This document shows, piece by piece, positions 9,121 to 38,131 of a stretch of 64,000 nucleotides of DNA (positions are counted from its first letter, which is position 1; each line of letters begins with the position of its first letter). The stretch is from Spirochaetota bacterium (GTDB lineage: Bacteria > Spirochaetota > UBA6919 > CBDBPB01): positions 415,703 to 479,702 of the forward strand of contig CBDBPB010000007.1 of assembly GCA_965208615.1 (NCBI GenBank), given 5' to 3'. Position numbers and translations under genes: made by a program. Under the pieces are notes generated by a model. It was not told where the DNA came from. It saw only the letters and a program-made list of their open reading frames with translations, and did not search any database.

Positions 9121-9126
9121 CAGCAC
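9121..9126 (+). repeat. Left target-site duplication CAGCAC
   Basis: Immediately precedes the TG terminus; identical copy at 44476-44481. Confidence 0.88.
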
Positions 9127-9181
9127 TGTTATTAAACGTTCTAATAAATATAACAATAAACGTTCTAAGGGAATTTTGTAA
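9127..9181 (+). repeat. Left terminal inverted repeat with two AAACGTTCTAA transposase-binding-like units 24 bp apart
   Basis: 52/55 identical to the reverse complement of 44421-44475. Confidence 0.92.
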
Positions 9182-9363
9182 GGAAAAACTCCTTAAAATG
9201 TACCTAAAATTTACATAAAATTAAGGGAAAAAAAGTGAATTTTAGGTAAAAAAGTGATAAAATCAAAGAAATTATAAAAATATTATAAAAGATTTTAAGG
9301 GAAAAAGAAGAAAAATAAGGATATTTTAAGAATTTTTAGAGAGGAAAAAGACTATTTATAGCC

Positions 9364-10137
9364 TTAAATAGCCTTAATATGACTTAGCTTACTTCTAAGC
9401 CTAATAATTGCTTTTGCATGTATCTGAGAAACTCTTGATTGAGATATGTTTAATATCTCTTTGATTTTTTTTAATTTTAAATCTTCATAATAATATAGAA
9501 TAAGCACTTTTTTTTCTTTTTCAGGCAATTCTTCAATTATTTTTGCAATAACTTTTTTAACCTCTTCTTTGCCTACCATTATATCTGGGTTAAAAGAGTT
9601 AGGGCTTTCTATTGTTTCAATAATAGAGACTTTACCACTATCATAACCTAAATACCATGCATCATTAACAGATATTAATGATGTTCTGCATATTTTTAAT
9701 AGTGTTTGCTGAAAGTCGTCTACGGGGATTCCTAATTCACCAGCAATTTCTTCATCTGTGGGAGCTCTGCACAATCTGTTTTCTAAAGTATTAACAGCAG
9801 ATTCAATTTCTTTAGCTTTCTGTCTTATTGATCTCGGTACCCAGTCAATAGAACGTAGCTCATCATATATTGCTCCCCTTATTCGTATAAACGCATAACA
9901 TTTAAATTTAATATCTCGAGATGGATCAAATTTTTCAATAGCATCAAGTAAACCAAAAACACCATACCCAACTAAATCGTCAAAATCAATATCTTGAGGC
10001 AGCAAGATTCTATTTGCAACTTTATTTGCAACATATTTTACTAAAGGAAGATATTGTATAATAAAGTTTTCTCTTATTGTTGGGTCTTGTGTTTTTTTAT
10101 ACGTTTTGAACATATTTTTTTCTTTTTGATTAAGCAT
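9364..10137 (-). CDS. fliA: Phage-encoded RNA polymerase sigma factor, FliA/WhiG (sigma-28) family
   Basis: YLPLVKYVA, DDLVGYGVFGLLDAIEKFDPSR, RIRGAIYDELRSIDWVPRSIRQK, LYYYEDL...SRVSQIH. Likely start is the ATG at 10137, overlapping the gemA stop (track start 10149). Confidence 0.93.
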   Translation of the reverse strand: MLNQKEKNMFKTYKKTQDPTIRENFIIQYLPLVKYVANKVANRILLPQDIDFDDLVGYGVFGLLDAIEKFDPSRDIKFKCYAFIRIRGAIYDELRSIDWVPRSIRQKAKEIESAVNTLENRLCRAPTDEEIAGELGIPVDDFQQTLLKICRTSLISVNDAWYLGYDSGKVSIIETIESPNSFNPDIMVGKEEVKKVIAKIIEELPEKEKKVLILYYYEDLKLKKIKEILNISQSRVSQIHAKAIIRLRSKLSHIKAI

Positions 10138-10549
10138 TTTTGTACACACCTTTTAGAGCCTCAATCAATATGGATGCTTGTTCCTTAGATAATCTATCAT
10201 AGGGCTTTTTAACAATTTTATTAGAGAAGTTACTAAGTTCTTCTTCATCCCATTTTAGTTGATAGCATAGTTTTAATATTTTTCTTTTTTGGCCTGGACT
10301 CATAAGGGAAATTATATTCCCTTTTGAGTTTGGGGATGGCTTAGTATTTCTATATCTACCCTTTGAGGCGTTATATTTTGATATTAATGTCTCTATAATC
10401 TTGTAAGCCTCCTGCCTTGTCAATTGTCTTATTGACTGCTTTCCACAAAGACCATAGATTATCTCGTATAAAGCCTCTTTGGGTAGCCTAACTTCATTTG
10501 TGCAAGCCCATATTTTAGCTATTTGTCTATTGCTAATACTATTTGTCAT
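10130..10549 (-). CDS. gemA: GemA / DUF1018 (Mu gp16-like) regulatory protein
   Basis: QIAKIW...LY..I....GKQSIRQLT..EA..II..L and S..Q..KI..L...L.W....L..F...LS.EQAS.LIEALK pattern; position in the early operon. Confidence 0.75.
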   Translation of the reverse strand: MTNSISNRQIAKIWACTNEVRLPKEALYEIIYGLCGKQSIRQLTRQEAYKIIETLISKYNASKGRYRNTKPSPNSKGNIISLMSPGQKRKILKLCYQLKWDEEELSNFSNKIVKKPYDRLSKEQASILIEALKGVYKNA

Positions 10550-10922
10550 TTGCTTTTACATATAGCCTTTCGCTTGTGGATGTGTTAGTTATGTCAACCA
10601 GAGCCCTTACATTACCTTTTAGAGCTTCCTTACCTTTTTTGGTTAGGGTATATCTCTCACTTATCCAGCTGGAGGCGTTCTCTTTTGTTATAGTCCCCTT
10701 TTCAATAGCGTCTTTTAACGTTATTGGATCAATGAGTGTGTATTTAGTCTCAGCAAGGCTTACCCTGCCTTTGTTGGTATTTATGCTCTCTCCTCTAACC
10801 ATAAAGCTAATAACCTTTTTGCTTAGGCTGTTATAGCTATTTTCCATGGCCTTAAGAGCTTTGTAGCACTTGATAAGCTTTTTAACTTCTTTAATTTTGT
10901 CTTTTTCCATGTTAAAAATCAT
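10539..10922 (-). CDS. Hypothetical phage early protein
   Basis: AAGGAG RBS; overlaps the gemA start; co-oriented in the operon. Confidence 0.6.
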   Translation of the reverse strand: MIFNMEKDKIKEVKKLIKCYKALKAMENSYNSLSKKVISFMVRGESINTNKGRVSLAETKYTLIDPITLKDAIEKGTITKENASSWISERYTLTKKGKEALKGNVRALVDITNTSTSERLYVKANDK

Positions 10923-10938
10923 TTTACTCTCCTTGTTT

Positions 10939-11787
10939 TTAGATGTGTTTAAAATGTTTATTAGTCAAAATATTAGACCCAGCATTTTTGGCTATAATTA
11001 AACCTTCTTTTAAAAGTTTGTTTATCTCCAAAAAGGATGATTGGCGTTTGGCTATCTCTTCAAAGGCGGAATTGTCAATACAACTGATATTAAGTTTATT
11101 AGTCTTTGCAATATGTTTTATATACTCTCTGCACTCATCAGGGGTTGCAATGCTGGCTATTGATAGACATTCTATTCTATTGTTGATTTCTTTGTTATTA
11201 GGCTCATTCAACAATGTGGATAGCTTGTTCTGTCCTATCAGCACTATACTAATAAGCCTGCTAAAGCCATAAGTACTCTCCCAAATGCTTTTTAAGGAAA
11301 ACAGATTATCCTTGTTCATTCTGTGAGCCTCATCCACAATAAGGACGGCCTTCTTATTCTCTTTAACCAAAGAAGTTAGTATATGCTTTACCTGTCTTAT
11401 AAAGGCCTCATTTGATCTTGTTGTCTTTGTGCCAGGCTGAATGTCAAATAAAAGAGCTTCGTATATTTGTCTTAGTCCTACTTTGATAAACTCATGATTT
11501 TCTATATTGCATATTATTGTTGAACTGTCATTTTTATAAAAGTCAGCCAAATATCTAACGAGGTATGTCTTGCCAGAGCCTGTCTCACCGGTTATAGCAA
11601 TGAACTTCTTATTCTTAATTGCGTTGAATATAAAGGCGAATGCAAGTCTAAAGCCTTCAGATAAAAATATATCCTTTTCATTTTCTATTTTGTTGATAAT
11701 ACTAATGTTATCAATAAGTTTGTTAATGCTATCTTCAGTTCCTTTTTTTAGTTTTGGAACAGCTCTTTCTTTCATTTTGGTAATCAT
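10939..11787 (-). CDS. Transposition AAA+ ATPase (MuB-like, ExeA-type)
   Basis: Walker A GETGSGKT, Walker B LIVDEAH, IVLIGQ; directly downstream of the transposase. Confidence 0.88.
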   Translation of the reverse strand: MITKMKERAVPKLKKGTEDSINKLIDNISIINKIENEKDIFLSEGFRLAFAFIFNAIKNKKFIAITGETGSGKTYLVRYLADFYKNDSSTIICNIENHEFIKVGLRQIYEALLFDIQPGTKTTRSNEAFIRQVKHILTSLVKENKKAVLIVDEAHRMNKDNLFSLKSIWESTYGFSRLISIVLIGQNKLSTLLNEPNNKEINNRIECLSIASIATPDECREYIKHIAKTNKLNISCIDNSAFEEIAKRQSSFLEINKLLKEGLIIAKNAGSNILTNKHFKHI

Positions 11788-11805
11788 AGTAGCGCTCCTT
11801 ATTTG

Positions 11806-13404
11806 TTAGGCTGAGTCAGCCTCTTTAACTTTTCTAATTAGAGAGTTAAGTTCACTTTCATATATTTTATTTCTATCACCAAAGAGGTTCTCAAGAGTCA
11901 GCTCAACAGCAGTGGTTACTTTTATATCATTGCTTGCTAAGTATATACACGCTGACTCAAAGTCATGGGCAGTCTGATTGATATTTCTTTTAATGTTAAA
12001 GTTTACTACATTTGGTTTTTCGTATTGCTTTTTGCTTACTTTTTCCAGCCCTGATACCATCTCGATTCTGGTTGTATAACTACCTGTGGTAACGTTTTTA
12101 TAGCTTTCAAGTTCTTTCTTAAGCTTATCCTTTTTGCTTTCCGGCATTTGTTTAAAAGCTCCAAAAGGTATTATATCCTCTCCATAAATATCAATATTAA
12201 AAGCCTTAATTTCTTTTCCTTCCGCAATAATGTTAATCTTGTCTCTATCCCTAATATCCTCTTCCACTTTTACTTTTTTGCCTATGCTGTTTGACAAAAT
12301 ATTCCTATAAGTTTTGGCTTGATATGTTTTACCATTCCACTTAATGGTAAAGTTGGGCATCAAAAGCCTTGAGTCCCATTTAGGACAAAGGCTCATAAAG
12401 CTTTTGTAATCAGGAGGCATCACAACTGTTAGATGCTGTAGATGGCTGTAAAACAATGTATTTGGGGCAATATCTGTTACTGAGTGAGTCCTGCTGTTAT
12501 ATTCATTAGCTATTGCATTTACCATTTGGTTATACTGTTTTAGGGTAGTGATTTTCTCAATGCGGGTTATGCTCGATCTTTTCTCCAAAAACTGTATAGA
12601 CCTTTCAATCATGCCCTTTGCTTGGGGGTTGCCAGGTATATGGGTTAGAAGCTCAACATTCAACTCTTTTAAGGTTTTATTGACAACTCCGCTTCTGTGG
12701 AACATAGAGGCATTATCAGTATAAATATACTTTGGCAGTCCTGTTTTGCTAGTTACCTCATAAAACTGCTGTAACCAAGTTTGGGTGGACTCATGAGTAT
12801 CCACTTTAAACCAGACCTTCCTACTGAACATATCCTGGAATGCCATGAACACAAGTTTAGTCTTTTTATTAGACCTATTCTTATTCTCAGACATTGGACT
12901 AATATATTTAACAACAGAATCGTTATTTTTTTCATGGCTGACATACCACTGAGTAGCCCTTGTGGAATCCCACTGTAGAACTTCTAAAGGGTAACTTGTA
13001 GTTAGTCTGAGGCTTGCTTTTTTAAGTTTAGACTTTCTGCCAAGCTCGTCATCCCTTAGCCATCTTCTTAGTGTGGATGGATGAATTGGGGACTTTATTA
13101 GCTGTCCATTTTCAATTTCTCCTTTTATGGTGCCGTCTATTATAAGGTCTTTGATTGCCTCTTCTGCTGGACGCTTATAGGTATTGACTAAAAGGACAAG
13201 CTTGTGGTATACGCTTTCTGGCAGTATTTTTTCTCCCTTATCTGATCGCTTATTCCTACGTCTGTATCCATATTTTCTAAGTTGTCTGTTTACGGATTGA
13301 GGGGTAACGCCATATTTTTTAGCAAGTTCTGGTATAAGGCTTAGGCCTTGCGTGGTTAGTATGTCTATTATGTCTTCCCATTCAGAATTAGTCAACCGTG
13401 GCAT
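11806..13404 (-). CDS. DDE transposase (MuA/B3-like)
   Basis: N-terminal HTH, RSDKG motif, catalytic QWDST...YTDNAS...GNPQAKGMIERS, YNSRTHS. Confidence 0.9.
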   Translation of the reverse strand: MPRLTNSEWEDIIDILTTQGLSLIPELAKKYGVTPQSVNRQLRKYGYRRRNKRSDKGEKILPESVYHKLVLLVNTYKRPAEEAIKDLIIDGTIKGEIENGQLIKSPIHPSTLRRWLRDDELGRKSKLKKASLRLTTSYPLEVLQWDSTRATQWYVSHEKNNDSVVKYISPMSENKNRSNKKTKLVFMAFQDMFSRKVWFKVDTHESTQTWLQQFYEVTSKTGLPKYIYTDNASMFHRSGVVNKTLKELNVELLTHIPGNPQAKGMIERSIQFLEKRSSITRIEKITTLKQYNQMVNAIANEYNSRTHSVTDIAPNTLFYSHLQHLTVVMPPDYKSFMSLCPKWDSRLLMPNFTIKWNGKTYQAKTYRNILSNSIGKKVKVEEDIRDRDKINIIAEGKEIKAFNIDIYGEDIIPFGAFKQMPESKKDKLKKELESYKNVTTGSYTTRIEMVSGLEKVSKKQYEKPNVVNFNIKRNINQTAHDFESACIYLASNDIKVTTAVELTLENLFGDRNKIYESELNSLIRKVKEADSA

Positions 13405-13405
13405 G

Positions 13406-14167
13406 TTATCTCCTAATAAGCCTGTCGTCCCATCTGACTCCCCATGCAGTCTGGACGCTTTTTATAGTTGTTACAAGACTTGACAGCAAATCAGTAGCCT
13501 GTCTTTGTTCTATATTTATTATGCTTGCTTTTTGTATGCTGAAAACAGCTTCGTTTATGAGGTCTTGGGCTTTTTTAAGATTCTCTATACAAAGCTTGTT
13601 AGGGTTTTTCAGGTCTTCTATTTGACCTTCAAGCTTTTCGATTTCTTTATCTTTTTCACTAAGCTGGACTTTGCCGAGTTCAATTTGTTTTTCTTTTTCT
13701 ATTCTTTTTCGTTTTTCAATCTCTTCGCCCGCCTTAGCTTTTTCAGCCATATTCAGCACATCTCTTTTTGAGAGTTCGTTTACATCTTTTCCTTCCAGTT
13801 TTCCAGTTTTCATTGCTTCATCAAAAAGATCATCAGGAAGTTTGGCAACGGCTTTGAAAGCAAAAGCCTTCATATCAATTATCTTGTTTTTATAAGGGTA
13901 GTATCTTTTTGCTATTTGCATATAACTCTGAGCCGTACGTTGAGAAAAGCCGCAAGACTCTTTTACCCATAAACCAAATTCTCCATGATCAAGTCGTTCT
14001 TTAGCTAGAATTAAATGCCTTCCTAATTCGATTATGTTTAGGAGAGTTTGTGTGTGGAGCTCTTTTATGATACCAGCTGTTCTGTCAGGATCAAAAATAA
14101 GTCCGTCAGTTAACTCATCAGTTGTTAATTCATTAGTTATAATATCAGTTGTAGCTAATTCGTTCAT
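13406..14167 (-). CDS. DUF3102-domain protein
   Basis: IELGRHLILAKERLDHGEFGLWVKESCGFSQRTAQSYMQIA; usual neighbour of the transposase in B3-like phages. Confidence 0.8.
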   Translation of the reverse strand: MNELATTDIITNELTTDELTDGLIFDPDRTAGIIKELHTQTLLNIIELGRHLILAKERLDHGEFGLWVKESCGFSQRTAQSYMQIAKRYYPYKNKIIDMKAFAFKAVAKLPDDLFDEAMKTGKLEGKDVNELSKRDVLNMAEKAKAGEEIEKRKRIEKEKQIELGKVQLSEKDKEIEKLEGQIEDLKNPNKLCIENLKKAQDLINEAVFSIQKASIINIEQRQATDLLSSLVTTIKSVQTAWGVRWDDRLIRR

Positions 14168-15152
14168 AACTTCCTCCTTGATGGTTGATTAGACTTGTCA
14201 GTTTGCTTTGTACCCAAAGTGGGACGTCATTTGACCTCTCTATTTTTTTTAGATACCCAGTAGTAATTTTTAACTTATCAGACAGCTCTTTTCTATTTAT
14301 GTTTAGCTTGCTTAGGCAGTCTGATATATAGTCAACTGTTTGATTACTGCTTTGTTCTAGCGGTTTGGATGTTTGTTTAGGCTCGCTAGAAAAAACTGCT
14401 TGTCCCCCTTTCCTGTTTACATTATGGAGGTTATTGGCTTTATTTTTATCGAAGGGGGTTATTTTTGTTACAGGAAGAGAGACAAGCAAATAACAAAACG
14501 ATAATGGAATTATACTTAGTAAAATGGATATAAAAGCTTTATTAAACATGCTTACAACAGTTGCTGGAATACCAGTTCGCTGGTCTAAGGAGGCCAATAT
14601 GGTTTCTTTTTTGGTTTTTAGTGCTATAGGTTTTAGATTGGATAGTTTAGCCTGTTCCTTTGTCCAAGTTTGATTTAAGTTCTTAATATCGTTATTCAGT
14701 CTATGGATCATCCATCTTGAATCAGTACTTTGTATTTTATTTATAGTTTGATATTTAGCTTTTATTTGTTGTTCTATACTGCCCATTCTTTTTGATATTA
14801 ACTCTTTATTTTTGTATGAGTTTTGATATTTAGCGTTATTGTTTATGGTGATGGTTTGGATTTCTTTGTTTTTGTTAAGGGATAGGCTTGTCATAACAGC
14901 GAAGTTAGCAAAGCTGGCAAAGGCAATTAGCACGGCTGATATTGTACCAAACACGGTTTTTGCTAATCTTTTGTTTGACTTGAACAAAAACACATGGCTT
15001 ATTATTTCTAATATTAGGACGGCCGCTAAAGTGGATATGCCTAAGGATACGGAGTTCATTTCTTGGATAAATAGTTCTTTTTGGATGAGAAATATTAAAA
15101 TTATTACAGCTATTAAAATTGTTATTAGTAAATATCTCCATAATGTTTTCAT
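14145..15152 (-). CDS. Membrane protein (about 4 TM segments, coiled coil) with C-terminal XRE-type HTH
   Basis: Three N-terminal hydrophobic segments, coiled coil, a fourth TM, then LSKLNINRKELSDKLKITTGYLKKIERS. Likely start MKTLW at 15152 after GGGAG (track start 15179). Confidence 0.65.
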   Translation of the reverse strand: MKTLWRYLLITILIAVIILIFLIQKELFIQEMNSVSLGISTLAAVLILEIISHVFLFKSNKRLAKTVFGTISAVLIAFASFANFAVMTSLSLNKNKEIQTITINNNAKYQNSYKNKELISKRMGSIEQQIKAKYQTINKIQSTDSRWMIHRLNNDIKNLNQTWTKEQAKLSNLKPIALKTKKETILASLDQRTGIPATVVSMFNKAFISILLSIIPLSFCYLLVSLPVTKITPFDKNKANNLHNVNRKGGQAVFSSEPKQTSKPLEQSSNQTVDYISDCLSKLNINRKELSDKLKITTGYLKKIERSNDVPLWVQSKLTSLINHQGGSYERISYN

Positions 15153-15337
15153 TTTTTCTCCCTGTTTTGTTTTAGCCATTTATCCTTTAGGACAACAGCT
15201 TTTAAAGTTTTATAAAGCTTGTTTTTTTCATCATCATCCATGCGATGGTATTTATTTATCACTCCAATTATATAATCTCGTTCATGTTTTGTTAGCTTAG
15301 GCAGTTCTGATAACGGTATAGACTCAAAATGCTTCAT
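15149..15337 (-). CDS. Hypothetical phage early protein
   Basis: Translationally coupled to both neighbours (overlapping stop/start). Confidence 0.6.
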   Translation of the reverse strand: MKHFESIPLSELPKLTKHERDYIIGVINKYHRMDDDEKNKLYKTLKAVVLKDKWLKQNREKK

Positions 15338-15825
15338 TACGCTAACCTCTTGAACTTATTTGGTCTTATATGCAGTTCTTCAGCCCATTTATGCAATTCT
15401 TTGTTCGAAAAGACTGCTTCTACTTGAGCTTCATTGACTATACCAAATATGTTTTCCCAGTTAAGGCCTGCTTTTCTTAATCTTAGCTTTATCAAGGCTA
15501 TATATTCTTTTTTTGATAAGTATGAATAGTTATTCTGAACAACTTTGTGAAGGCAGGTTTTCAGAAATTCAGACTCGCTAAGTCGTTTGAGATCGTATTT
15601 TTTATGACAAAACGCAGATCGGATTTCATTTTCGAGTAGATTTAGCTTTTTCAAAAAAGCAACTACGTCATTGTGTCTTTTGTTTTTGGTATTAAGATAC
15701 TTATAGGCTGTGGCAGAACTGACGCCAAAGTGCAACATGATGTTTTTGATTATGTCCTTTTTTTTAAGAATTTTTCTTCTTTCGTTATATGAGTGTATCT
15801 CTATGCTGTTCATTTCACACCTCAA
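15337..15825 (-). CDS. Hypothetical DNA-binding protein (N-terminal HTH)
   Basis: IKNIMLHFGVSSATAYKYLN HTH-like segment. Confidence 0.55.
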   Translation of the reverse strand: MRCEMNSIEIHSYNERRKILKKKDIIKNIMLHFGVSSATAYKYLNTKNKRHNDVVAFLKKLNLLENEIRSAFCHKKYDLKRLSESEFLKTCLHKVVQNNYSYLSKKEYIALIKLRLRKAGLNWENIFGIVNEAQVEAVFSNKELHKWAEELHIRPNKFKRLA

Positions 15826-15826
15826 A

Positions 15827-15844
15827 CGCCAGCACTTGCTGGCG
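15827..15844 (-). terminator. GC-rich hairpin within the early operon (possible weak terminator)
   Basis: CGCCAGCA-CT-TGCTGGCG perfect stem, followed by TTT on the minus strand. Confidence 0.4.
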
Positions 15845-15851
15845 GGAATAA

Positions 15852-16032
15852 CTACATTTTTCTTATCAGATTGATTGTATCTAGAACGTCTTTTTCAGAG
15901 TAATGACCCATTATTTCTCTCTCAGCTTTCTTTAAAAGAGACTCAAATCTGCTCTGTAAGAACAGGCATCGTTTTTTTTAAACAAAGAGCACTTTGAAGC
16001 ATGTTTTGGACTTCGCTTGACAATACTTCCAT
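15852..16032 (-). CDS. Small hypothetical protein (59 aa) with a +1 frameshift in an A8 run
   Basis: AAGGGGG RBS and ATG at 16032. Removing one A gives MEVLSSEVQNMLQSALCLKKRCLFLQSRFESLLKKAEREIMGHYSEKDVLDTINLIRKM. Confidence 0.45.
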
Positions 16033-16221
16033 GAACTTCCCCCTTCTTTTTTTTATAACTCAGGCATGCCTATCGCTAAGCGGGATCTGCAAACAGGGCT
16101 GGGTGCTGGCTTATAAGTTCTACAGCCCTATCTAAAACTGACAAAGCTAAGCACAACTTTAAAAGCTAATTGCTCTATTTCTTGTTTTCCAGCTAAGTAT
16201 TTGTTATTCACTGCCTGCTCC

Positions 16222-16449
16222 CTATGGCTCTACTAATACTTTAGATTTTCTTCTTTTCAATCTTGGGTGATAGTATTTTTTCTGGAACTCAATTAGGCTG
16301 TCTTTTTCTATTAACCAAACAGTCCCGCCTGCTAAACGGGAACCAATTCGCTCTTCTCTGCAAAACTTTGTAATAGATGACTTTGGGATGCCTGTCCATG
16401 CGGTAGCTTCTGACACGACAAAAACATCATTTAAATTAATTTTTTCCAT
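16222..16449 (-). CDS. Excisionase-family (HTH_17) DNA-binding protein
   Basis: FVVSEATAWTGIPKSSITKFCREERIGSRLAGGTVWLIEKDSL. Confidence 0.75.
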   Translation of the reverse strand: MEKINLNDVFVVSEATAWTGIPKSSITKFCREERIGSRLAGGTVWLIEKDSLIEFQKKYYHPRLKRRKSKVLVEP

Positions 16450-16542
16450 AAACTTCCCCCTTTTTTTGTACTCCCCTCCAGCCTATCGCTTGTCATTGTG
16501 TTGTGTTATAGTTACCTTTGTGTAAAATATCTGGAGGTAACT

Positions 16543-16692
16543 ATGACAGAAGACAACGACCTAAAAAGCATTCTCATCGAGATATCTCAACAGCTAAATG
16601 ACATTAAAACTCTTCTATCAGAGCATCTCCCAGCCCTCTCAGAAAACTCTAAGAAGCTTGTCAAGAGATCAGCTATGAAGCCAAGAATTTAG
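16543..16692 (+). CDS. Small protein (49 aa) antisense to the early operon
   Basis: GGAGG RBS at 16533-16537, ATG at 16543; coiled-coil-like MTEDNDLKSILIEISQQLNDIKTLL. Confidence 0.55.
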   Translation: MTEDNDLKSILIEISQQLNDIKTLLSEHLPALSENSKKLVKRSAMKPRI

Positions 16693-16838
16693 TTATCAAA
16701 TAGTATTGAATTAGCTTCTATCAACTCTTTGACTCGCCCTAAAGTAGACAGGGCGAGCTTTTTTGGCATATCAGACATTTGGAGCATTATGGTATAAGCC
16801 CCTTCTTCACGACGTTTTGTATCTTCTTTGTTTTCCAT
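16689..16838 (-). pseudogene. Frameshifted small ORF, paralog of 16861..17010
   Basis: GGGAG RBS and MENKEDTKRREE; the shifted frame continues RAYTIMLQMSDMPKKLALSTLGRVKELIEANSILFDN*. Confidence 0.4.
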
Positions 16839-16860
16839 GTTTGTCTCCCTTTTTATTTTT

Positions 16861-17010
16861 TTATTCCGAAAAACAAAAGAGCATAGGATTTTCTCTTATC
16901 ATTTCCATTGCTTTCTTTAGTATAGCAACAGAATCGCAAACTGATTCTGTTGAAAAGCCAATAGCGATTATAAATGCTTTGTTCTCAATCTCTTTTTTAG
17001 ACAGCTTCAT
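16861..17010 (-). CDS. Small hypothetical protein (49 aa)
   Basis: MKLSKKEIENKAFIIAIGFSTESVCDSVAILKKAMEMIRENPMLFCFSE; ATGA overlap with the upstream stop. Confidence 0.5.
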   Translation of the reverse strand: MKLSKKEIENKAFIIAIGFSTESVCDSVAILKKAMEMIRENPMLFCFSE

Positions 17011-17243
17011 ACTACCTTCCTCGCTGGCCTGAAGGGATACTCGTTGCCTCCACTCCGAAACGTCACAAACAATCTGTTAAGATTGTGATAATGCCAGTAC
17101 TCATAAGGCATTATCCCCACATTGTTTCTTAGATGCCCGTTATCCAAAACGGATTTATAGGTTATTCCATGATAAACTATTTCTAACTCATCAGACAAAG
17201 TACTGCAATGATAATCTTTTGCAGACGGTTTAATAGCATACAT
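17007..17243 (-). CDS. Hypothetical phage protein
   Basis: AAGGAG RBS; co-oriented in the operon. Confidence 0.55.
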   Translation of the reverse strand: MYAIKPSAKDYHCSTLSDELEIVYHGITYKSVLDNGHLRNNVGIMPYEYWHYHNLNRLFVTFRSGGNEYPFRPARKVV

Positions 17244-17254
17244 TTTATTCTCCT

Positions 17255-18202
17255 TTAGTTTGTAGTTGCAAATCTAACTGGAAAATTATCTTTTATTTTG
17301 TGTTTAATGTTGTGTTTAACGCTATTAGCTTTAAAGTCGCTATTATCATCAGCCCTCTCTATTTGGCAAAAAGACATATTGTCTAATTCACGCATAAGTT
17401 CTAAGTTCTCTCTTTTTTTAAGCTCTTGTATGCACTTATAGATTATCAATTTTCTTTGATAAAACTTCTTATCTGCTTTGTCCGTGCTAAAAAGAGCAGT
17501 GAAGTGATGATAACAGTCAACTGCAAGCTCTTTAGAGTTTTCTATTTTGTAATTTTGAAACCAAGCAAGGATATGGATAGCTGGAAAACATAGGCTCTTT
17601 TTTAGCTTGTTGCTAAAGTTAGGCACTAAAACATTAGTCACAGGAATATTAGCTTTTTTGATAGCCCTGTATGCCCTTTGTGAGTCAAGATTAAGGACCT
17701 GACAAACATTATTAACAACTAATAAAATCTCTTTTGAGATCTTATTGCGAAGTGCTATAAAGACTTTGTCTGACTCATAAGGAATGGCTTTAAGGTCGTA
17801 AGACATACTATAATGAAATGTTCTTGGCTTTTTTGGCTTAACTTTGCCCAAAAAGTGCTCGGCTAATACTTTGGCTGCTTCGTCTTGATACAATTCAAGC
17901 TTTTTTTGGAGTTCTGGCTTAACTTTATTTATGTTGATTGTTGTTAGCCACAGTGGAATTAAATCGTGGCGAATGCAAAACATGTCTTGTGCTGTGACTG
18001 CTCCTCTTGTCGGTATTGGGATAATCACAACACCTTTAGATAAAGTTCTGTTGTTTTTGATTTTTGTATATTGTGCAGGATAGTCAATCCCTAAAGCCTC
18101 ACAAATGAGCTTGAGAGGAGTGCAAATGTCATTAGTTTGCCTGTCCAGCACTGCTGTTATTTTATCACCGTAAAAATCGATTGTAGATATTTCATTTCTC
18201 AT
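17255..18202 (-). CDS. Antirepressor-like protein C with two tandem P22 AR N-terminal domains
   Basis: TIDFYGDKI...PLKLICEALGID...Q..KIK...MFCI....IPLWLTTININKVKPE...L..YQ.E, then a second degenerate copy. Start ATG at 18202 after GGGAG (track start 18232). Confidence 0.8.
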   Translation of the reverse strand: MRNEISTIDFYGDKITAVLDRQTNDICTPLKLICEALGIDYPAQYTKIKNNRTLSKGVVIIPIPTRGAVTAQDMFCIRHDLIPLWLTTININKVKPELQKKLELYQDEAAKVLAEHFLGKVKPKKPRTFHYSMSYDLKAIPYESDKVFIALRNKISKEILLVVNNVCQVLNLDSQRAYRAIKKANIPVTNVLVPNFSNKLKKSLCFPAIHILAWFQNYKIENSKELAVDCYHHFTALFSTDKADKKFYQRKLIIYKCIQELKKRENLELMRELDNMSFCQIERADDNSDFKANSVKHNIKHKIKDNFPVRFATTN

Positions 18203-18206
18203 TTTC

Positions 18207-19197
18207 ATTCTCCCATCCGAAAAACTTGTCAAGGCGTTTATAGTTTTAGCTCTTGCACAAAGCCTTTCTTGCGTGCTGTTGCCAGATTTGGGCTGTTCTT
18301 TGCCCTATCCCAAGCTTTTTGTAAAACTCTAATTTTTCTCCATGTTCAAAGTTTTTATTGCTTAGATACATGCCTATCGCTAAGCGTATTGCATTTTGTG
18401 TTGCTCTGCTCATGTTGCTTAAAACTGTCTCTATGTCTTTATCATTTGCATTGCTATTAGCAAGACGAATGAAAGCCTCAATAGTATTGTCTTTGGCTCG
18501 ACCCAAAAAGTGCTCGGCTAATACTTTGGCTGCTTCGTCTTGATACAGTTCTAACCTAACTTGAAGGCCAGACTTCACCCTGTCTATATTAATTGTTGCA
18601 AGCCATAATGGCAAAGAGTCTTGGCGGATATAAAACATGTCCTGCTCTTTGACTGCTCCTTTTGTCGGTGTTCGTATAACACGAACACCTTTTGATAATA
18701 TTCTATGTCTCTGGATTTTCTCATATTGTCCACTAAAACTAAGACCTAAACGATCACAGATAGGCTTAACAGGAGTATAAATATCATTAGTTCTCTTATC
18801 TAAAATCCCTGTTACCCTATCTCCATAAAAGTTAATAGTTGATATTTCATAATTATTATTCATTGTTATTCTCCCATCCGAAAAACTTGTCAAGGCGTTT
18901 ATAGTTTTAGCTCTTGCACAAAGTCTTTCTTGCGTGCTGTTGCCAGATTTGGGCTGTTCTTTGCCCTATCCCAAGCTTTTTGTAAAACTCTAATTTTTCT
19001 CCATGTTCAAAGTTTTTATTGCTTAGATACATGCCTATCGCTAAGCGTATTGCATTTTGTGTTGCTCTGCTCATGTTGCTTAAAACTGTCTCTATGTCTT
19101 TATCATTTGCATTGCTATTAGCAAGACGAATGAAAGCCTCAATAGTATTGTCTTTGGCTCGACCCAAAAAGTACTCGGCTAATACTTTGGCTGCTTC
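18207..19197. repeat. 330-bp direct repeat (18207-18536 and 18868-19197)
   Basis: Copies offset by 661 bp with 2 mismatches seen. Confidence 0.93.
18246..18863 (-). CDS. Antirepressor-like protein B (P22 AR N-terminal domain plus DUF3102-like C-terminus)
   Basis: P22_AR_N pattern; C-terminus HGEKLEFYKKLGIGQRTAQIW. Start ATG at 18863 (track start 18893). Confidence 0.8.
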   Translation of the reverse strand: MNNNYEISTINFYGDRVTGILDKRTNDIYTPVKPICDRLGLSFSGQYEKIQRHRILSKGVRVIRTPTKGAVKEQDMFYIRQDSLPLWLATINIDRVKSGLQVRLELYQDEAAKVLAEHFLGRAKDNTIEAFIRLANSNANDKDIETVLSNMSRATQNAIRLAIGMYLSNKNFEHGEKLEFYKKLGIGQRTAQIWQQHARKALCKS

Positions 19198-19518
19198 TTT
19201 TTGGTAAAGGTAGAGCCTGTCTCTTAGTTCTGGCTTGACTTTGTTGATGTTGATTGTTGTTAGCCATAGTGGAACTAAATCGTGGCGAATACAAAACATG
19301 TTTTGTTTTTTGACAGCACCTCTTGTCGGTGAGACCATAATGGTCACACCGTCGCTTAAAACAGGATGGTTTTGTATTTTTCTAATTTGCTTGTTTGAAG
19401 CAATTCCAAAAATCTCACAAATAGGTCTGACAGGAGTGTAAATGTCATTAGTTTGCCTGTCCAGCACTGCTGTTATTTTATCACCGTAAAAATCGATTGT
19501 AGATATTTCATTTCTCAT
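18907..19518 (-). CDS. Antirepressor-like protein A (P22 AR N-terminal domain plus DUF3102-like C-terminus)
   Basis: Same architecture as B with a near-identical C-terminus. Start ATG at 19518 (track start 19548). Confidence 0.8.
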   Translation of the reverse strand: MRNEISTIDFYGDKITAVLDRQTNDIYTPVRPICEIFGIASNKQIRKIQNHPVLSDGVTIMVSPTRGAVKKQNMFCIRHDLVPLWLTTININKVKPELRDRLYLYQKEAAKVLAEYFLGRAKDNTIEAFIRLANSNANDKDIETVLSNMSRATQNAIRLAIGMYLSNKNFEHGEKLEFYKKLGIGQRTAQIWQQHARKTLCKS

Positions 19519-19696
19519 TTTCATTCTCCCATCCGAAAAACTTGTCAAGGCGTTTAGAAGTCATTTTGTCATGTATATAAAAATGCACTGCGTGATAAGT
19601 TATCCCTAATGTTTTAGCTGCTTCTTTCTGAGTCATCCCTTTATCAATTAACTTTTTTTTACAATGTTTGATTTTCTGAAGGTTTTCAGCAGACAT
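19508..19696 (-). CDS. Cro/Ner-like HTH regulator
   Basis: KKLIDKGMTQKEAAKTLGITYHAV; first gene of the early operon, divergent from the repressor; AAGGAG RBS. Confidence 0.8.
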   Translation of the reverse strand: MSAENLQKIKHCKKKLIDKGMTQKEAAKTLGITYHAVHFYIHDKMTSKRLDKFFGWENENEK

Positions 19697-19752
19697 TAAC
19701 AGCTCCTTTAATCAATTTTTTATTAATGTAATTTGAATTTCATTCGATTTTA

Positions 19753-19780
19753 AATTAACTTAATATTAATTAAGTTAATT
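19753..19780. promoter_or_regulatory. Palindromic operator (12-bp arms) at the early transcription start
   Basis: AATTAACTTAAT-ATTA-ATTAAGTTAATT. Confidence 0.55.
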
Positions 19781-19782
19781 AT

Positions 19783-19811
19783 ATTATACGGATAAATTAT
19801 CCGTAAGTCAA
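19783..19811 (-). promoter_or_regulatory. Early promoter (sigma70) with a palindromic operator filling the spacer
   Basis: TTGACT(19811-19806)-17 bp-TATAAT(19788-19783); palindrome TACGGATAA-A-TTATCCGTA at 19787-19805. Confidence 0.8.
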
Positions 19812-19852
19812 GTGTAATTTTGTTTTTTTATCCTTTTTTTTTGAGTATTTAT

Positions 19853-20299
19853 ATGTTTGGCGATAGAGTAAGGAAAGTACGAAACATATTGAAGCTGAAT
19901 CAGTCTCAGCTATCTAAAGCAATAGGGATAGATAGCAGTCGTTTAAGCCGCGTAGAAAATGATAAAGAAAAGTTGACAATAGAGCAATTGGATAAATTAT
20001 CAAGACTAAAGAATATTAATCTGCACTGGCTATTAACAGGAGAGGGTGAGATGTTTTTAGGCTCTAAGGATAAAAATAAAATGGAAGAGAGAGTCACATA
20101 TCACGAAATGAGCGATGCCGAGATCAGGCTGTTAAAAGAGATCATAATGCTCTCAGAAGAAGCTTGCATAGATTTAGAGATTAGGGTTGACCCAAAAACA
20201 AAAGCAGAAAAGATAGTAAAGCTTTTTCTACACTATCATAAAGAAGAGATAGCAGTAGACAAACAAACTATTGGCACTATATTAAAACTTGTGTCGTAG
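19853..20299 (+). CDS. Prophage repressor (XRE/CI-like HTH, no S24 peptidase domain)
   Basis: FGDRVRKVRNILKLNQSQLSKAIGIDSSRLSRVEN...INLHWLLTGEGEMF; ATG at 19853 (track start 19820). Confidence 0.88.
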   Translation: MFGDRVRKVRNILKLNQSQLSKAIGIDSSRLSRVENDKEKLTIEQLDKLSRLKNINLHWLLTGEGEMFLGSKDKNKMEERVTYHEMSDAEIRLLKEIIMLSEEACIDLEIRVDPKTKAEKIVKLFLHYHKEEIAVDKQTIGTILKLVS

Positions 20300-20472
20300 T
20301 AACCAAGAAATGCAAGCTTATGAGATAATATTACTTTATATTGATAATAAACATTAACAACGCTATCCTTAACCATTATGACTCTGTCTACTCCTTTTAG
20401 CTTCTCTTTTTTTCCGATTTTCTCTTCAAATTCTTTTCGCACTTTTTTTCTCTTACTGTTATTTTCGCCCAT
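20236..20472 (-). CDS. Small basic hypothetical protein, convergent with the repressor
   Basis: AAGGAG RBS before ATG at 20472; overlaps the 3' end of the repressor gene. Confidence 0.45.
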   Translation of the reverse strand: MGENNSKRKKVRKEFEEKIGKKEKLKGVDRVIMVKDSVVNVYYQYKVILSHKLAFLGYYDTSFNIVPIVCLSTAISSL

Positions 20473-20793
20473 CGGTTTTCTCCTTGTATAAATCAGTCTT
20501 TATAAACTATATTAAACAAAGGGTAATGTTAATATCTTAGACTTAAAGTGAGAAAAAATAAACTTATTTTGAATTTTGACAGGAAGTTAGTCGTATAGAA
20601 CAGTAATAAAATTGCTTTTATGACAGCTATATTAATTCAAATGCGTACACCCCGCACGCATTTGACCCTGTGTTTATGATTTTTACTTTTAGGTAAAGTA
20701 GGGTTAAAAAATACATATAATAGGAAGAAAGTCAGTTTTAAATGCGAAATCGTTTCGCATTTGTCATTACGGTGATTTGAATATCGCTTTCTA

Positions 20794-20973
20794 TTATAGA
20801 TTTGATTTTTTTAACAAATATTTTTCTATACTGTCTTTATAGAGAAATATTTTTTTCTTACCAGGTTTATATCCTTTAATTTTACCGTCTTCAAGCAGTT
20901 CATAAAGCATGTGTCTGCCTATCTTGTATATCTCAGAAGCTTCTTTAACAGTCATAACATTTTTACTTGTCAT
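20794..20973 (-). CDS. Excisionase/BldC-family (HTH_17) DNA-binding protein
   Basis: VMTVKEASEIYKIGRHMLYELLEDGKIKGYKPGKKKIFLYKDSIEKYL; divergent from the late operon (track start 21012). Confidence 0.8.
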   Translation of the reverse strand: MTSKNVMTVKEASEIYKIGRHMLYELLEDGKIKGYKPGKKKIFLYKDSIEKYLLKKSNL

Positions 20974-21015
20974 ATATTCTACAATTACGTCAATTTCTAT
21001 TAAAAAAAACAACTA

Positions 21016-21089
21016 TTTTAGCTGTTTTAGAGGTTTTAGCTGTTTTAGGCAGTTTTAGGTTTGCCTAAAGTCTTTTCTATTCATAACTT
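21016..21089 (+). promoter_or_regulatory. Five TTTTAG direct repeats followed by a putative late promoter
   Basis: TTTTAG at 21016, 21025, 21034, 21043 and 21053; TTGCCT(21061)-17-TAACTT(21084-21089). Confidence 0.55.
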
Positions 21090-21095
21090 TTTTGT

Positions 21096-21614
21096 ATGGC
21101 GTACTCTGATTTAATTAAAGAGCAAGCGTTTAGTCTCTTTTGCATAGGCTATTCGTTTGCTAAAATAGCAAAGAAGCTTAAAATTGAAAATAAAAAAGAA
21201 TGCAAAAACATAAACAGCAAGACAGTCAAGACGTGGGCAAAGAGGTTTGATTGGGAGAATGAAAGAGAAAAAGGTAAAAAAAGTGCTATAGAAAACAGAA
21301 AACAAAGCATAGTTAATTTAATAACACAAGTTGCAAAGCAAACGGAAAAGCAAATCATAAAATGTCTTGAAGAGATAGACAAAAAAGAGTTCAGCAGTAA
21401 GGAGGGCGGGATATATGCTACAATAGCCCTTCTGAATAAGCACTTAGAGCTTGCTGGCAAAAATGTAATAATAAACATAAACAACAAAGAGGATGTGGCC
21501 CTTTTGCTGACAGCTATGCAGAGCATACCCGAGCTAAACAATGCTATAGAAAAACATAAAAGCGTGATAGGAAAAAAATTAAAAGAGCTACAAGCTGAAA
21601 ATGAAGAGGCATAA
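21096..21614 (+). CDS. Putative terminase small subunit (HTH, DUF1804/ATPase-subunit-like)
   Basis: YS..IKEQAFSLF..G.S...IA..L......TVK.W.K.FDW..ER; first late gene. Confidence 0.6.
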   Translation: MAYSDLIKEQAFSLFCIGYSFAKIAKKLKIENKKECKNINSKTVKTWAKRFDWENEREKGKKSAIENRKQSIVNLITQVAKQTEKQIIKCLEEIDKKEFSSKEGGIYATIALLNKHLELAGKNVIININNKEDVALLLTAMQSIPELNNAIEKHKSVIGKKLKELQAENEEA

Positions 21615-21617
21615 ATA

Positions 21618-21905
21618 ATGACAGTCGCTGAAGAAAGGCTAAGAGAAGCTGAAACAGACATTAAGCTATTACAAATTGGTCAAACTGAAATCAAAAAAGA
21701 TTTGCAATATGTTAAGCTGGCTGTAAACGAGCAAAAAGATACTGACAAGGAGATCCTTGACAAGCTCGATGAACATAGCATATCGCTTAACACCCTTACC
21801 AATTCAAGAACATTAGGGAAACGCATTATGGAAATTGTATTAGGGGGTTTATTGACAGGTTGTTTAGCACTTATTGCATGGTTTGCAAGAGAGGCGCTTA
21901 AATGA
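21618..21905 (+). CDS. Coiled-coil protein with C-terminal TM (XhlA/holin-like)
   Basis: ERLREAETDI..L coiled coil, then IVLGGLLTGCLALIAWFA; adjacent to the endolysin. Confidence 0.55.
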   Translation: MTVAEERLREAETDIKLLQIGQTEIKKDLQYVKLAVNEQKDTDKEILDKLDEHSISLNTLTNSRTLGKRIMEIVLGGLLTGCLALIAWFAREALK

Positions 21906-22378
21906 ATTGGACCAACTTTTCCATAAACGAAATTGTTAATCCTTTATTCGATGACTGCCCTTATAGCTGGATTGAACTATCCGGCGAAGTTAAAAGGAAC
22001 CTGATTCATACAATGGACTTGGTTCAAGAGTTGAGAAGTCATATGGGCTTAGGAATAAGGCTTAATAGCACATACAGACCTAAAAGCAAAGGGGCTCACG
22101 GCTCTGGCAAAGCTGTTGACTGTCAATTTTATCTTGATGATACGTCGGCCTATCTTCGGGCTATGAACTGGCTTAAGCAGGGATGTTCTCAAACGGGTTT
22201 TAGAGTCATAATGGAGTGGAGCGGTAGGCCAGATGGTATTCCCTGGTTCCACGTAGACAGAAATTATAAAGATTATGGAGCTAAAGTTTTAGTAGTGGGC
22301 TATCCTACTGATGGAGTGCCCGGCAATAAAATGGAATATGCCTATTGGACAGGAGGTTTGCCGGGAGATTATGTATAA
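21902..22378 (+). CDS. Endolysin, peptidase M15 family
   Basis: IRLNSTYRP...AHGSGKAVDC...WFHVD Zn-binding pattern. Confidence 0.8.
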   Translation: MNWTNFSINEIVNPLFDDCPYSWIELSGEVKRNLIHTMDLVQELRSHMGLGIRLNSTYRPKSKGAHGSGKAVDCQFYLDDTSAYLRAMNWLKQGCSQTGFRVIMEWSGRPDGIPWFHVDRNYKDYGAKVLVVGYPTDGVPGNKMEYAYWTGGLPGDYV

Positions 22379-22592
22379 AATAAGTAGGAAGTTTTGGCTT
22401 GCAGTAGCTTTAATAATTTCAGCTACCATACTGCTCATATATAATATAATAAACAGCGATAACTGGGTGCACGTTGTGGAGGTCATTGGGGCTAGTTATA
22501 TTGCGGGCAATGTGGCTCACAGTGCTGTTAGCAGTATGAGGTTTATGAGAGTTGAAAAAAGAAGAGTAGATATAGATGATGTTGAAAAGTAA
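22371..22592 (+). CDS. Putative holin (2 TM)
   Basis: MYKISRKFWLAVALII...W..VV..I.ASYIAGNVA; GGGAG RBS before ATG at 22371 (track start 22311). Confidence 0.65.
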   Translation: MYKISRKFWLAVALIISATILLIYNIINSDNWVHVVEVIGASYIAGNVAHSAVSSMRFMRVEKRRVDIDDVEK

Positions 22593-22639
22593 GGATAATT
22601 TAATAAAAAATATAACTTTTAATTTAAGGAGTAAAAACT

Positions 22640-22747
22640 ATGACAAGCGTCAAGAGAATACTTGGTCAACTAGCTAAGCACTGGAAAATAATTGCCCTTA
22701 CCGTAGGAGCTATTTGTTTAGCTGTACTATTGCTATACGCAGGATAA
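22640..22747 (+). CDS. 35-aa single-TM peptide
   Basis: AAGGAG RBS; MTSVKRILGQLAKHWKIIALTVGAICLAVLLLYAG. Confidence 0.55.
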   Translation: MTSVKRILGQLAKHWKIIALTVGAICLAVLLLYAG

Positions 22748-22762
22748 CAATAGGATAGTACG

Positions 22763-23050
22763 ATGAAAAAGCTTATAATTATCGCAATAGCTATTATTAT
22801 AGCTATTGCTATTTTCTTTATAGTAAATAAGGATAACCATTTAAACGACTACTGGCACAATCTTATAGAGAGAAAAAAAGAAATTAAAAAAAAGAAAGAA
22901 GATAATAACTCAAAGATTGGAACAATTAAAATAAAACTAAATGAGCTTAAAAAAGAGGAAATAGAATTTGAGAAAAGTAAAAAAGTTCGCTCTAAAGTGG
23001 ATATTAATAGTCTCCTTAGGCGTTATAAGCACTATAGCACAGGCAAGTGA
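22763..23050 (+). CDS. Rz-like inner-membrane spanin candidate
   Basis: N-terminal TM followed by a coiled coil; in the lysis cluster; overlapped by the next gene. Confidence 0.5.
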   Translation: MKKLIIIAIAIIIAIAIFFIVNKDNHLNDYWHNLIERKKEIKKKKEDNNSKIGTIKIKLNELKKEEIEFEKSKKVRSKVDINSLLRRYKHYSTGK

Positions 23051-23480
23051 TGAAAATAGTCACAAAAAAGCCGCTATAGACTTGTATAAAGGTCTTGAGG
23101 ATGCCAATAGAGTCATAATAGAACTAAGACAAGTTAATTATAGCCTTAGAAAAAGGTATAAGGCTTTGCTAAAGCAGAGTATAGAAATTACTAATGAGCT
23201 TATTGCCGTAAGAACTAAGCTAAACAGCAGTCTGGATAAGCAAACCTTTTGGATAAAGGAATACGAAAAGTTAAGAAATAAAAAGCTTGCTCACAAATGG
23301 ATAAGCATGTCCATTAATTTTGGAGTAAGCCATGACAGGCTGAAAACTGAGGCCTCTGTACGCCTTAGTCCTTTTAAGGCTTTGAAAAGCTTTAACTTCT
23401 TCCTGACAGGGGGATATGAGTATATATATAAACATAAAGGGGATTTTTATTGGTTAGTCGGCATTGGATATAGTTTATGA
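22968..23480 (+). CDS. Secreted coiled-coil protein with C-terminal outer-membrane beta-strands (Rz1 position)
   Basis: Signal peptide ending AQA, coiled coil, four amphipathic strands ending YWLVGIGYSL; GAGG RBS before the TTG start. Confidence 0.6.
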   Translation: MRKVKKFALKWILIVSLGVISTIAQASDENSHKKAAIDLYKGLEDANRVIIELRQVNYSLRKRYKALLKQSIEITNELIAVRTKLNSSLDKQTFWIKEYEKLRNKKLAHKWISMSINFGVSHDRLKTEASVRLSPFKALKSFNFFLTGGYEYIYKHKGDFYWLVGIGYSL

Positions 23481-23492
23481 TATGGGCTTGCA

Positions 23493-28031: not shown

Positions 28032-28085
28032 AATGCATCTCCTAATACTAAGATAACACAGTTTTTTAAAGGAGGCAAGTAAAAA

Positions 28086-29364: not shown

Positions 29365-29365
29365 T

Positions 29366-33380: not shown

Positions 33381-33460
33381 AAAGCGTGGAAAGCACTTTG
33401 ATTAACAATTTAAATAGATGGCTGGTCACTTAAAAGCGACTGGTCGCAAGGAGGTAAATC

Positions 33461-33871: not shown

Positions 33872-33895
33872 ATCGAGCAAATAAAAGGAGTTAAC

Positions 33896-38129: not shown

Positions 38130-38131
38130 AG

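Follow-up and report, generated by a model that had tools for sequence, protein, structure and literature searches.

The window analyzed here, a stretch of 64,000 nucleotides (nt) from a Spirochaetota bacterium (assembly GCA_965208615.1, contig CBDBPB010000007.1, positions 415,703 to 479,702), contains a Mu-like transposable prophage whose early operon ends, directly after the gemA gene, in a gene for a flagellar-type sigma-28 factor (FliA/WhiG). The features that define the locus are given below, with positions counted from the first letter of the window and with the evidence for each in brackets.

9364..10137, minus strand: captured sigma-28 (FliA/WhiG) gene (Pfam, NF004935, maximum likelihood tree)
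10130..10549, minus strand: gemA (PF06252 at 39.6 bits, cut-off 27; phrog_286 at E 1.8e-20)
9127..44475: Mu-like transposable prophage of 35,349 bp (inverted ends, duplication)
9127..9181: left terminal inverted repeat, starting TGTTA, with two AACGTTCTAA sites (blastn self-match)
44421..44475: right terminal inverted repeat, ending in TAACA (blastn self-match)
9121..9126 and 44476..44481: target-site duplication CAGCAC (junctions compared with four uninterrupted copies of a host repeat)

A sigma gene captured from the host lineage

The sigma open reading frame (ORF) spans 9364..10149 on the minus strand and reads as 261 residues from a GTG or as 257 residues from the ATG at 10137; the ATG is the likely start, and the 257-residue form is entry P0001 of the protein collection. 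Within the 261-residue form Pfam recognizes Sigma70_r2 (residues 31-103, E 7.6e-16), r3 (112-151, E 1.7e-7) and r4 (205-252, E 4e-16), region 1.1 being absent. The protein scores 365.7 bits with the NCBIfam WhiG equivalog NF004935 (cut-off 343) and 264.5 bits with TIGR02479 (cut-off 189.6), the corresponding scores of the host's own FliA being 428.6 and 285.2 bits. The overlap with gemA, a frame of 139 residues, amounts to 8 nt if the ATG is the start and to 20 nt if the GTG is, and the sigma stop codon lies 237 bp inside the left end of the prophage, with no ORF of 50 or more residues in the ORF list between the stop and the phage end. Consensus scans found 10 promoter-like sites around the gene, compared with 9.7 +/- 2.8 in shuffled sequences, and no terminator-like site 3' of it on the coding strand. 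With its start overlapping the gemA stop, the gene does not have the make-up of a moron, i.e. its own promoter and terminator together with expression in the lysogen. A preliminary description of the window, made from its letters alone, had presented the gene as an intact FliA/WhiG with regions 2, 3 and 4, as the last gene of the early operon overlapping the gemA stop, and as lying inside a prophage bounded by terminal inverted repeats and a target-site duplication; the Pfam and NF004935 matches, the 8-nt overlap from the ATG, and the 55-nt ends with the CAGCAC duplication bear out all three statements.

The inverted ends match each other over 55 nt at 94.5% identity by blastn, while a repeat finder instead gives 66 nt at 88%; matches to a second, related element likewise stop exactly at 9127 and 44475 (blastn against the whole genome). 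A ~540-bp host repeat present in dozens of copies is split by the prophage into the flanks 8805-9127 and 44475-44697, and four intact copies of it run straight across the junction and thus serve as paralogous empty sites. Because of the inverted ends, the empty sites and the duplicated CAGCAC, the prophage is placed at 9127-44475. The duplication would be 6 bp long if the ends are TG..CA, lengths of 5 to 8 bp being possible; a 5-bp duplication, GCACT, was considered and dropped in favor of 6 bp, since the end alignments stop at 9127 and 44475. The target duplication of phage Mu is 5 bp. GC content is 33-40% in the prophage versus 27-31% in the flanks. As to the host repeat itself (8803-9126 and 44476-44697 in the window; e.g. 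G000:C4:92255-92790 elsewhere in this genome), its first ~45 nt (TGTTAAC.AACGTTTTAG..) resemble the phage inverted end and its other end has no likeness to the phage end; the repeat may be a miniature element moved by transposases of this phage family.

The host genome (2.46 Mb in 9 contigs, 99.4% complete) is the sole member of its GTDB family, in a class of five genomes. The phage copy is not the host's only fliA; had it been so, through a misassembly, the reading of the preliminary description would by its own terms have been refuted. A separate gene, 81% identical to the phage copy, lies on contig C4 (C4:36388-37146) in a flagellar operon of the order fliN-fliO-fliP-fliQ-fliR-flhB-flhA-flhF-flhG-(191 aa)-fliA-fapA, and the host also encodes FlgM. 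The two copies are 80.4% identical in protein and 86.8% identical in DNA over 734 nt (10102 to 9369), and the homology to the host fliA DNA seems to run on weakly for ~20 nt beyond the stop. In a maximum likelihood tree of 43 FliA rows, of the kind the preliminary description had proposed, the phage sigma is the sister of the host FliA with support 100/97, followed by the metagenome protein P0002 and then by G004, a genome of the same order. The terminal branch of the phage row is 0.34 substitutions per site, that of the host row 0.0 and the median 0.029; because of this long branch and an unusual composition, the exact place of the phage row is less sure than the support suggests. Silent divergence between phage and host fliA codons (dS) is 0.39 and replacement divergence (dN) 0.116, a dN/dS of 0.30; between the host fliA and that of G004, with 89.5% protein identity, silent sites are saturated. 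At 17.4%, the GC content at third codon positions of the phage sigma gene is near that of the host fliA (19.0%) and lies outside the range of 18 other phage genes (28-41%). The phage gene is thus a copy of the host lineage's own fliA, captured into the phage.

Insertion between gemA and the terminal spacer

The arrangement without the sigma gene is seen in a related phage of G003, a genome of the same order. There the phage end follows the gemA stop by ~123 nt, with the same paired CCCTTAGAACGTT sites, and this stretch between gemA and the end can be aligned to the ~135 nt that adjoin the left end of the prophage in the window. Comparison of the two phages delimits one further feature.

9262..10130, minus strand: inserted segment of ~0.87 kb, consisting of the sigma ORF and ~100 nt of 3' flank (alignment against the sigma-less G003)

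Homology to G003 resumes at ATCACTTTTTT, an inferred boundary that is good to ~10 nt. The sigma segment is an insertion between gemA and the terminal spacer.

Two further elements in the host genome bear on this history. A remnant on contig C3 (G000:C3:9839-15821, L052) shares 5,200 nt at 98.5% identity with window positions 10140-15339, and its proteins from orf62 through gemA are 92-100% identical to those of the window phage; it comprises the repressor, the cro-like gene and the early operon as far as gemA. The likeness ends at the gemA stop, beyond which a host gene follows, and the remnant is without sigma gene, inverted ends and late genes; since it is a truncated copy, it says little on polarity. 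The sigma-less junction type of this remnant is the only one shown by run X2. A third element (G000:C7:139129-171020, partly L053) has late genes with 47-88% protein identity over the matched stretches, and HTH_17 and cI-like genes as well; its early side ends with a gemA-like gene followed by tRNA genes, and transposase, MuB and sigma are all absent from it.

In phage Mu the middle and late activators are Mor and C (PF08765), small activators of the sigma-70 polymerase. The preliminary description had recognized neither in the window phage, and this agrees with a PF08765 search of the entire genome in six frames, which gave two matches, both below the cut-off and neither in the window, and with a Pfam scan of all phage ORFs, which found no Mor. 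It had also taken gemA followed by mor to be typical of Mu-like phages. This holds in part, in that Mor directly follows gemA in 8/26 spirochete Mu-like loci (with an HTH_17 protein there in one more case, 36 downstream ORFs having been scanned); the slot is empty in the nearest kin of the window phage. The 26-locus scan was made without L029, L043, L045 and L049, which had a contig end or no useful ORF at this place, L043 and L045 being read by eye. The further proposal that the sigma gene replaces Mor/C is not supported, because in both the G003 relative and the third element the early genes end with gemA, which marks the sigma gene as added cargo of ~0.87 kb rather than a substitute for a lost Mor. 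Nor could gemA-fliA synteny be traced in related prophages: GemA was found in 46/401 sampled Spirochaetota genomes, and none of the 30 loci fetched from these has a sigma gene within 1.5 kb of gemA (best tblastn E 0.48).

Divergence, predicted targets and rival explanations

The residues that read promoters and contact FlgM were mapped by HMMER alignment to solved sigma-28 chains, a comparison on the level of sequence that covers the protein apart from the variable linker between regions 3 and 4. Among the contact residues given in the available part of a preprint on the E. coli sigma-28 initiation complex (10.1101/2020.01.02.893370), host and phage agree at the equivalents of K208 and R220 (-35 backbone) and at those of R74, R84, R94, R58 and Q63. 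Likewise the equivalents of the P. aeruginosa residues S224 and Q228 (base-reading), R97 (extended -10), R80, Y76 and D87, taken from the structures as reported in the accessible portion of PMC12784957, are identical in host and phage, and the FlgM contacts from the same source (L187, I191, L200, A203, L204, Y206, E209, L210, R82, R90 and P96) show no host/phage difference. Thus most equivalents of the residues reading GCCGATAA and TAAA are kept in this mapping, and three -10 positions are changed: the equivalents of E. coli T69 (T to C) and Q73 (T to I), and the loop of R34, which carries a 2-residue insertion. The Ile gained at the Q73 position is the residue found there in P. aeruginosa (I79), mutants of which lose just 10-20% of motility according to the same part of PMC12784957. 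The altered specificity suggested in the preliminary description is therefore not borne out, the mappable -35 and extended -10 readers being those of the host and three -10-contact positions differing.

Promoters of the sigma-28 type are not apparent in the phage. The consensus TAAA-N14-16-CCGATA does not occur in the window (0 found, 0.56 expected), and the prophage has 28 sites that agree with the consensus at no fewer than 10 of its 12 positions, versus 24.4 +/- 5.4 in shuffled sequences, none of the 28 standing before an operon. The preliminary description was thus correct in seeing no good sigma-28 promoter before the late genes, and the same counts support its view that this lack favors a host-directed role. 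A perfect (12/12) consensus at C7:168673 on the minus strand, which points toward the late genes of the third element, lies inside the coding sequence of that element's cI-like gene and is not conserved in the window phage; it is probably a chance occurrence and was set aside. The host has canonical sigma-28 sites before flgM, at a distance of 148 nt, and before one flagellin gene, at 343 nt, these two promoters being at C7:349813 and C7:408932, respectively; a further site precedes an operon ending in a flgL-like gene.

As judged from the aligned proteins, the surface of the phage sigma is strongly remodelled since capture and its hydrophobic core positions are kept. The net charge is +5 (pI 8.9) in the phage protein and -10 (pI 5.1) in the host FliA, a shift of +15, and 13 relatives of comparable length range from -11 to 0. 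Two helices, the N-terminal one and the first of region 4.2, retain their hydrophobic positions while acidic or neutral surface residues there have become lysines, and three new lysines adjoin the lysine of region 4.2 that contacts the DNA backbone. The commonest change is G to A (28/114), so that mutation bias may explain part of the lysine shift. The first 12 codons are kept in number with almost no identity to the host fliA, and both indels are in frame: a 6-nt insertion, which lengthens the loop of region 2.1/2.2 by 2 residues, and a 9-nt deletion, with a new stop and a C-terminus shorter by 3 residues. Escape from FlgM by charge reversal (FlgM being +10, the host FliA -10 and the phage sigma +5) is not favored as the principal explanation, because the mapped hydrophobic FlgM-contact residues are unchanged.

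The retention of three domains, of most -35, extended -10 and -10 readers, and of the residues that hold FlgM makes the phage protein look like a still working sigma-28. The explanation we favor, to which we would assign about an even chance on these features, is that it adds to the cell's sigma-28 when the early operon is expressed and works on the flagellar regulon of the host and its FlgM checkpoint. The host fliA would have been copied into a Mu-like phage between gemA and the terminal spacer, and the sigma gene would be the last to be expressed from the early (transposition) operon, upon induction or infection rather than in the quiescent lysogen, a timing that is suggested by this anatomy because the ATG overlaps the gemA stop and the scans gave the gene neither a promoter nor a terminator. 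The targets of the sigma would be the host sigma-28 promoters (flagellin, flgM, flgK/L and similar), the most likely ones because the phage is without promoters of this type. Surplus sigma-28 would then exceed what FlgM can hold or titrate FlgM away, the late regulon of flagellar and chemotaxis genes would be switched on or distorted, and core RNA polymerase would be taken during the lytic cycle. A search of RNA runs listed none for positions 9100-10700, which speaks neither for nor against such expression.

Several observations weigh against this proposal. The three changed -10-contact positions described above are among them, and we know of no benefit of activating periplasmic-flagellum genes in a cell about to lyse. 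Of the 50 differences between host and phage FliA, 40 are assigned to the phage branch and 7 to that of the host, with 3 ambiguous, and 19 of the 40 phage-branch changes fall at columns that are invariant in 13 host-type FliAs; the changes are spread nearly evenly along regions 2, 3 and 4, which fits relaxed selection too, with region 4 showing the most changes at invariant columns (8/38). The NF004935 family score is down by 63 bits compared with the host copy. An even division of dS over the two branches would put the phage-branch dN/dS at ~0.5, which is our own estimate and not a fitted model; of the measure proposed in the preliminary description, the pairwise value of 0.30 indicates constraint and the branch value does so less clearly. 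Finally, the exact protein is a singleton among ~15 billion proteins and this genome alone carries the phage copy, so that there is no sign of selection keeping the sigma gene across the phage relatives.

Most of these observations can be read as the marks of a passenger gene in decay, i.e. of a fliA that was caught by illegitimate recombination, conferred no gain, and drifts with its frame still open for lack of time. The disparity in branch length between phage and host copies, the changes at invariant columns and their near-even spread over the regions, the fall in family score, and the ability of the phage relatives to manage without a sigma gene all agree with such decay, and the G to A bias could account for part of the lysine gain without selection. 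However, the frame has stayed open through 114 observed substitutions, and when the host gene was mutated in simulations with the observed spectrum, the share of runs still free of stops was 5% after 60 substitutions, and it fell to 1.6% after 80 and to 0.5% after 114. Invariant columns have changed half as often as variable ones (19/134 versus 30/120, odds ratio 0.50, p 0.038), hydrophobic positions have been kept while surface charges flipped, and the in-frame indels, the pairwise dN/dS and the residues for DNA reading and FlgM contact in the P. aeruginosa mapping, which are untouched, likewise argue against decay; we regard it as somewhat unlikely. At the opposite pole, the stolen sigma-28 might be an adaptive tool of host manipulation that overrides the FlgM checkpoint and alters the swimming of the doomed cell to the phage's advantage, the remodelled surface charge being a trace of that adaptation. 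So strong a version of the host-directed proposal seems to us unlikely.

The sigma might alternatively serve the phage's own late genes, doing a Mor/C-like job at diverged middle or late phage promoters. Its position is that of Mor where Mor follows gemA, as the last gene of an early operon in a genome without Mor/C, and both the three altered -10-contact positions and the three lysines gained in region 4.2 could be seen as fitting such a role. Yet the closest relatives have neither Mor nor sigma after gemA, and the control region before the late operon (GTTTTAG repeats with an HTH_17 neighbor) is partly conserved in the sigma-less third element and offers another candidate activator; moreover sigma-28-like promoters are not above chance and none stands before the late operon, the -35 and extended -10 readers are unchanged, and the new Ile is a residue that occurs naturally at its position in P. 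aeruginosa. A late-gene role is therefore improbable. That the locus is an assembly artefact, a wrong join of the host fliA for instance at the 5.2-kb stretch nearly identical to the C3 remnant, would be suggested by the exact start of this repeat at the gemA end; furthermore the segment 10010-10197, which contains the gemA-sigma junction, is uncovered in run X1 and bridged by no public contig. On the other hand, the DNA is only 86.8% identical to the host fliA, a gene that forms a distinct assembled locus within its own operon, contigs of run X1 match the phage copy exactly over 9387-9930, unique sequence joins the sigma gene to the left end, and the two ends pair through one duplicated target in one copy of the host repeat. 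An artefact is accordingly the least credible of these explanations and would be very surprising.

The rest of the prophage and comparison with known systems

The remaining features of the prophage are as follows.

10539..13404, minus strand: core of the early operon, with orf127, MuB-like ATPase and DDE transposase (Pfam, PHROG)
19508-19696, minus strand, and 19820-20299, plus strand: immunity switch of a cro-like gene and a cI-like repressor gene (HTH_3, HTH_19, Phage_CI_repr; PHROG repressor families)
20794..21012, minus strand: HTH_17/excisionase-type gene (PF12728 at E 1.4e-10; TIGR01764)
21015-21058: five GTTTTAG repeats in the control region 5' of the late operon (20794..21095 with the HTH_17 gene; read from the sequence)
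21096..43807, plus strand: late operon (Pfam)

The MuB-like ATPase (10939-11787) matches AAA_22 and the 'DNA transposition protein' family phrog_296 (E 1.8e-26), and the DDE transposase (11806-13404) matches phrog_310 (E 3.4e-35), its Pfam rve match being weak at 23.4 bits, below the cut-off of 32.6. The transposase has no relative in IMG/VR, two weak matches (22-25% identity) among 50,697 phage records, and a fragmentary match of 53% identity on a metagenome contig of 1.9 kb that gives no context. Further early genes in the same direction encode a DUF3102 protein, three P22-antirepressor-like paralogues and the cro-like protein. The antirepressor-like genes are tandem paralogues with the P22 antirepressor N-terminal domain, at 17255-19548 on the minus strand, and encode 325, 215 and 213 residues with a mutual DNA identity of 79-82%. 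Between the cI-like and HTH_17 genes, in 20600-20790, lie two strong hairpins, AAATGCGTACACCCCGCACGCATTT and AAATGCGAAATCGTTTCGCATTT, which may be bidirectional terminators or a small RNA. The late control region also has a weak pair of sigma-70-like hexamers and adjoins the divergent HTH_17 gene. The late operon encodes a terminase, a Mu portal fused to Mu F, capsid, Mu gp36 and a virion morphogenesis protein, and continues with sheath, tape measure, baseplate J and tail fibre; the Pfam names include Portal_Mu, Phage_Mu_F, DUF2586 and Baseplate_J. Within the tail-fibre gene (42173-43807) there are internal direct repeats offset by ~126 nt with 86-89% identity, as well as a SUKH-3-like match, and the last ORF before the right end (43880-44128) is an 82-residue piece of an Amidase_2 domain. 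The element thus shares with Mu-like phages the transposase and MuB, TG..CA ends with a short duplication, and Mu-type head and tail genes; it departs from the one-direction gene order of Mu in that the early operon runs leftward (19696 to 9364) and the late operon rightward (21096 to 43807) from a central switch.

The phage sigma belongs to the same family and equivalog as the chromosomal FliA/WhiG of spirochetes, which lies in a FlgV-sigma-28-FapA cassette, and it has the same domains and identical mapped promoter- and FlgM-contact residues. It differs from the chromosomal factor in its location in a transposable phage, coupled to gemA and not to flhG/flgV, and in its charge (+5, not -10), its changed 12 N-terminal residues, its 2-residue insertion and its C-terminus shorter by 3 residues. 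Like Mor, it is found immediately behind gemA, where the early transcript ends; unlike Mor it is a full sigma factor, an unrelated protein, and the slot is empty in the nearest relatives of its phage. SPO1 gp28 and T4 gp55 are phage-encoded specificity subunits for the host core polymerase, highly diverged factors that read phage promoters; the phage protein described here is, in contrast, close to a copy of the host factor, and phage promoters to match it were not found.

The closest precedent may be the Bacillus phages, temperate ones included, that carry homologues of the host sporulation sigma factors (SigF/SigG-like), as described in the accessible part of Schwartz et al. 2022 (PMC9429907). 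Insofar as that portion allows the comparison, these are, as is proposed here, alternative sigma factors of host type able to act on a host developmental regulon and not on phage genes. The present case differs from them in being flagellar and not sporulation-related, in Spirochaetota and not Firmicutes, on a Mu-like phage, and with a donor that is traceable to the host's own lineage. Within its main text, so far as the article was accessible, the terms FliA, flagell-, SigD and motility do not occur. TldR proteins, prophage-encoded RNA-guided repressors that remodel host flagellin expression according to the available part of PMC13418256, likewise set a temperate phage against host flagellar expression; as far as that source goes, the mechanism is another one and acts in the lysogen, not from a lytic early operon. 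A host-derived alternative sigma on a temperate phage is thus already known, and the flagellar sigma-28 case is a rare addition, with no description of a phage-borne flagellar sigma-28, or of a sigma factor in a transposable phage, found in the open-access literature.

Searches for further phage-borne copies gave few candidates and, in the phage collection, no verified case. In the collection of 50,697 phage records 48 match the sigma, five of them over at least 80% of its length; two of these five, H5 and H7, proved to be bacterial flagellar operons in unverified virome scaffolds and were rejected, H3, H4 and H6 lying outside this check. IMG/VR has two loci with a FliA alignment, L054 and L055. 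L054, an uncultivated virus genome of 22.9 kb, was rejected as a phage-borne FliA, the gene being in host DNA beside a Mu-like prophage. There the FliA-like gene lies among flagellin glycosylation genes (NeuB, MptE-like) and adjoins the baseplate end of the prophage, and a neighborhood of this type could be a possible starting point for fliA capture. Two FliA matches were found in 4/401 Spirochaetota genomes, and in this genome alone is one of them phage-borne. In one spirochete genus there are tandem fliA pairs (G218:C26:12721-14277 and G268:C42:4044-5617), and the same genus also has a second fliA among housekeeping genes (G042:C1:1388965-1389720).

The weight of the case is limited by its occurrence in one genome and by a function that is predicted from sequence. 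It is nevertheless a case that can be read closely, in that the donor gene is present in the same genome, the insertion point is known to ~10 nt, and change in the copy has outpaced that in its source by a factor of ten or more. It thus constitutes a natural experiment on the fate of a motility master regulator under virus ownership, and offers a testable lead as to whether temperate spirochete phages tamper with the motility of their hosts.

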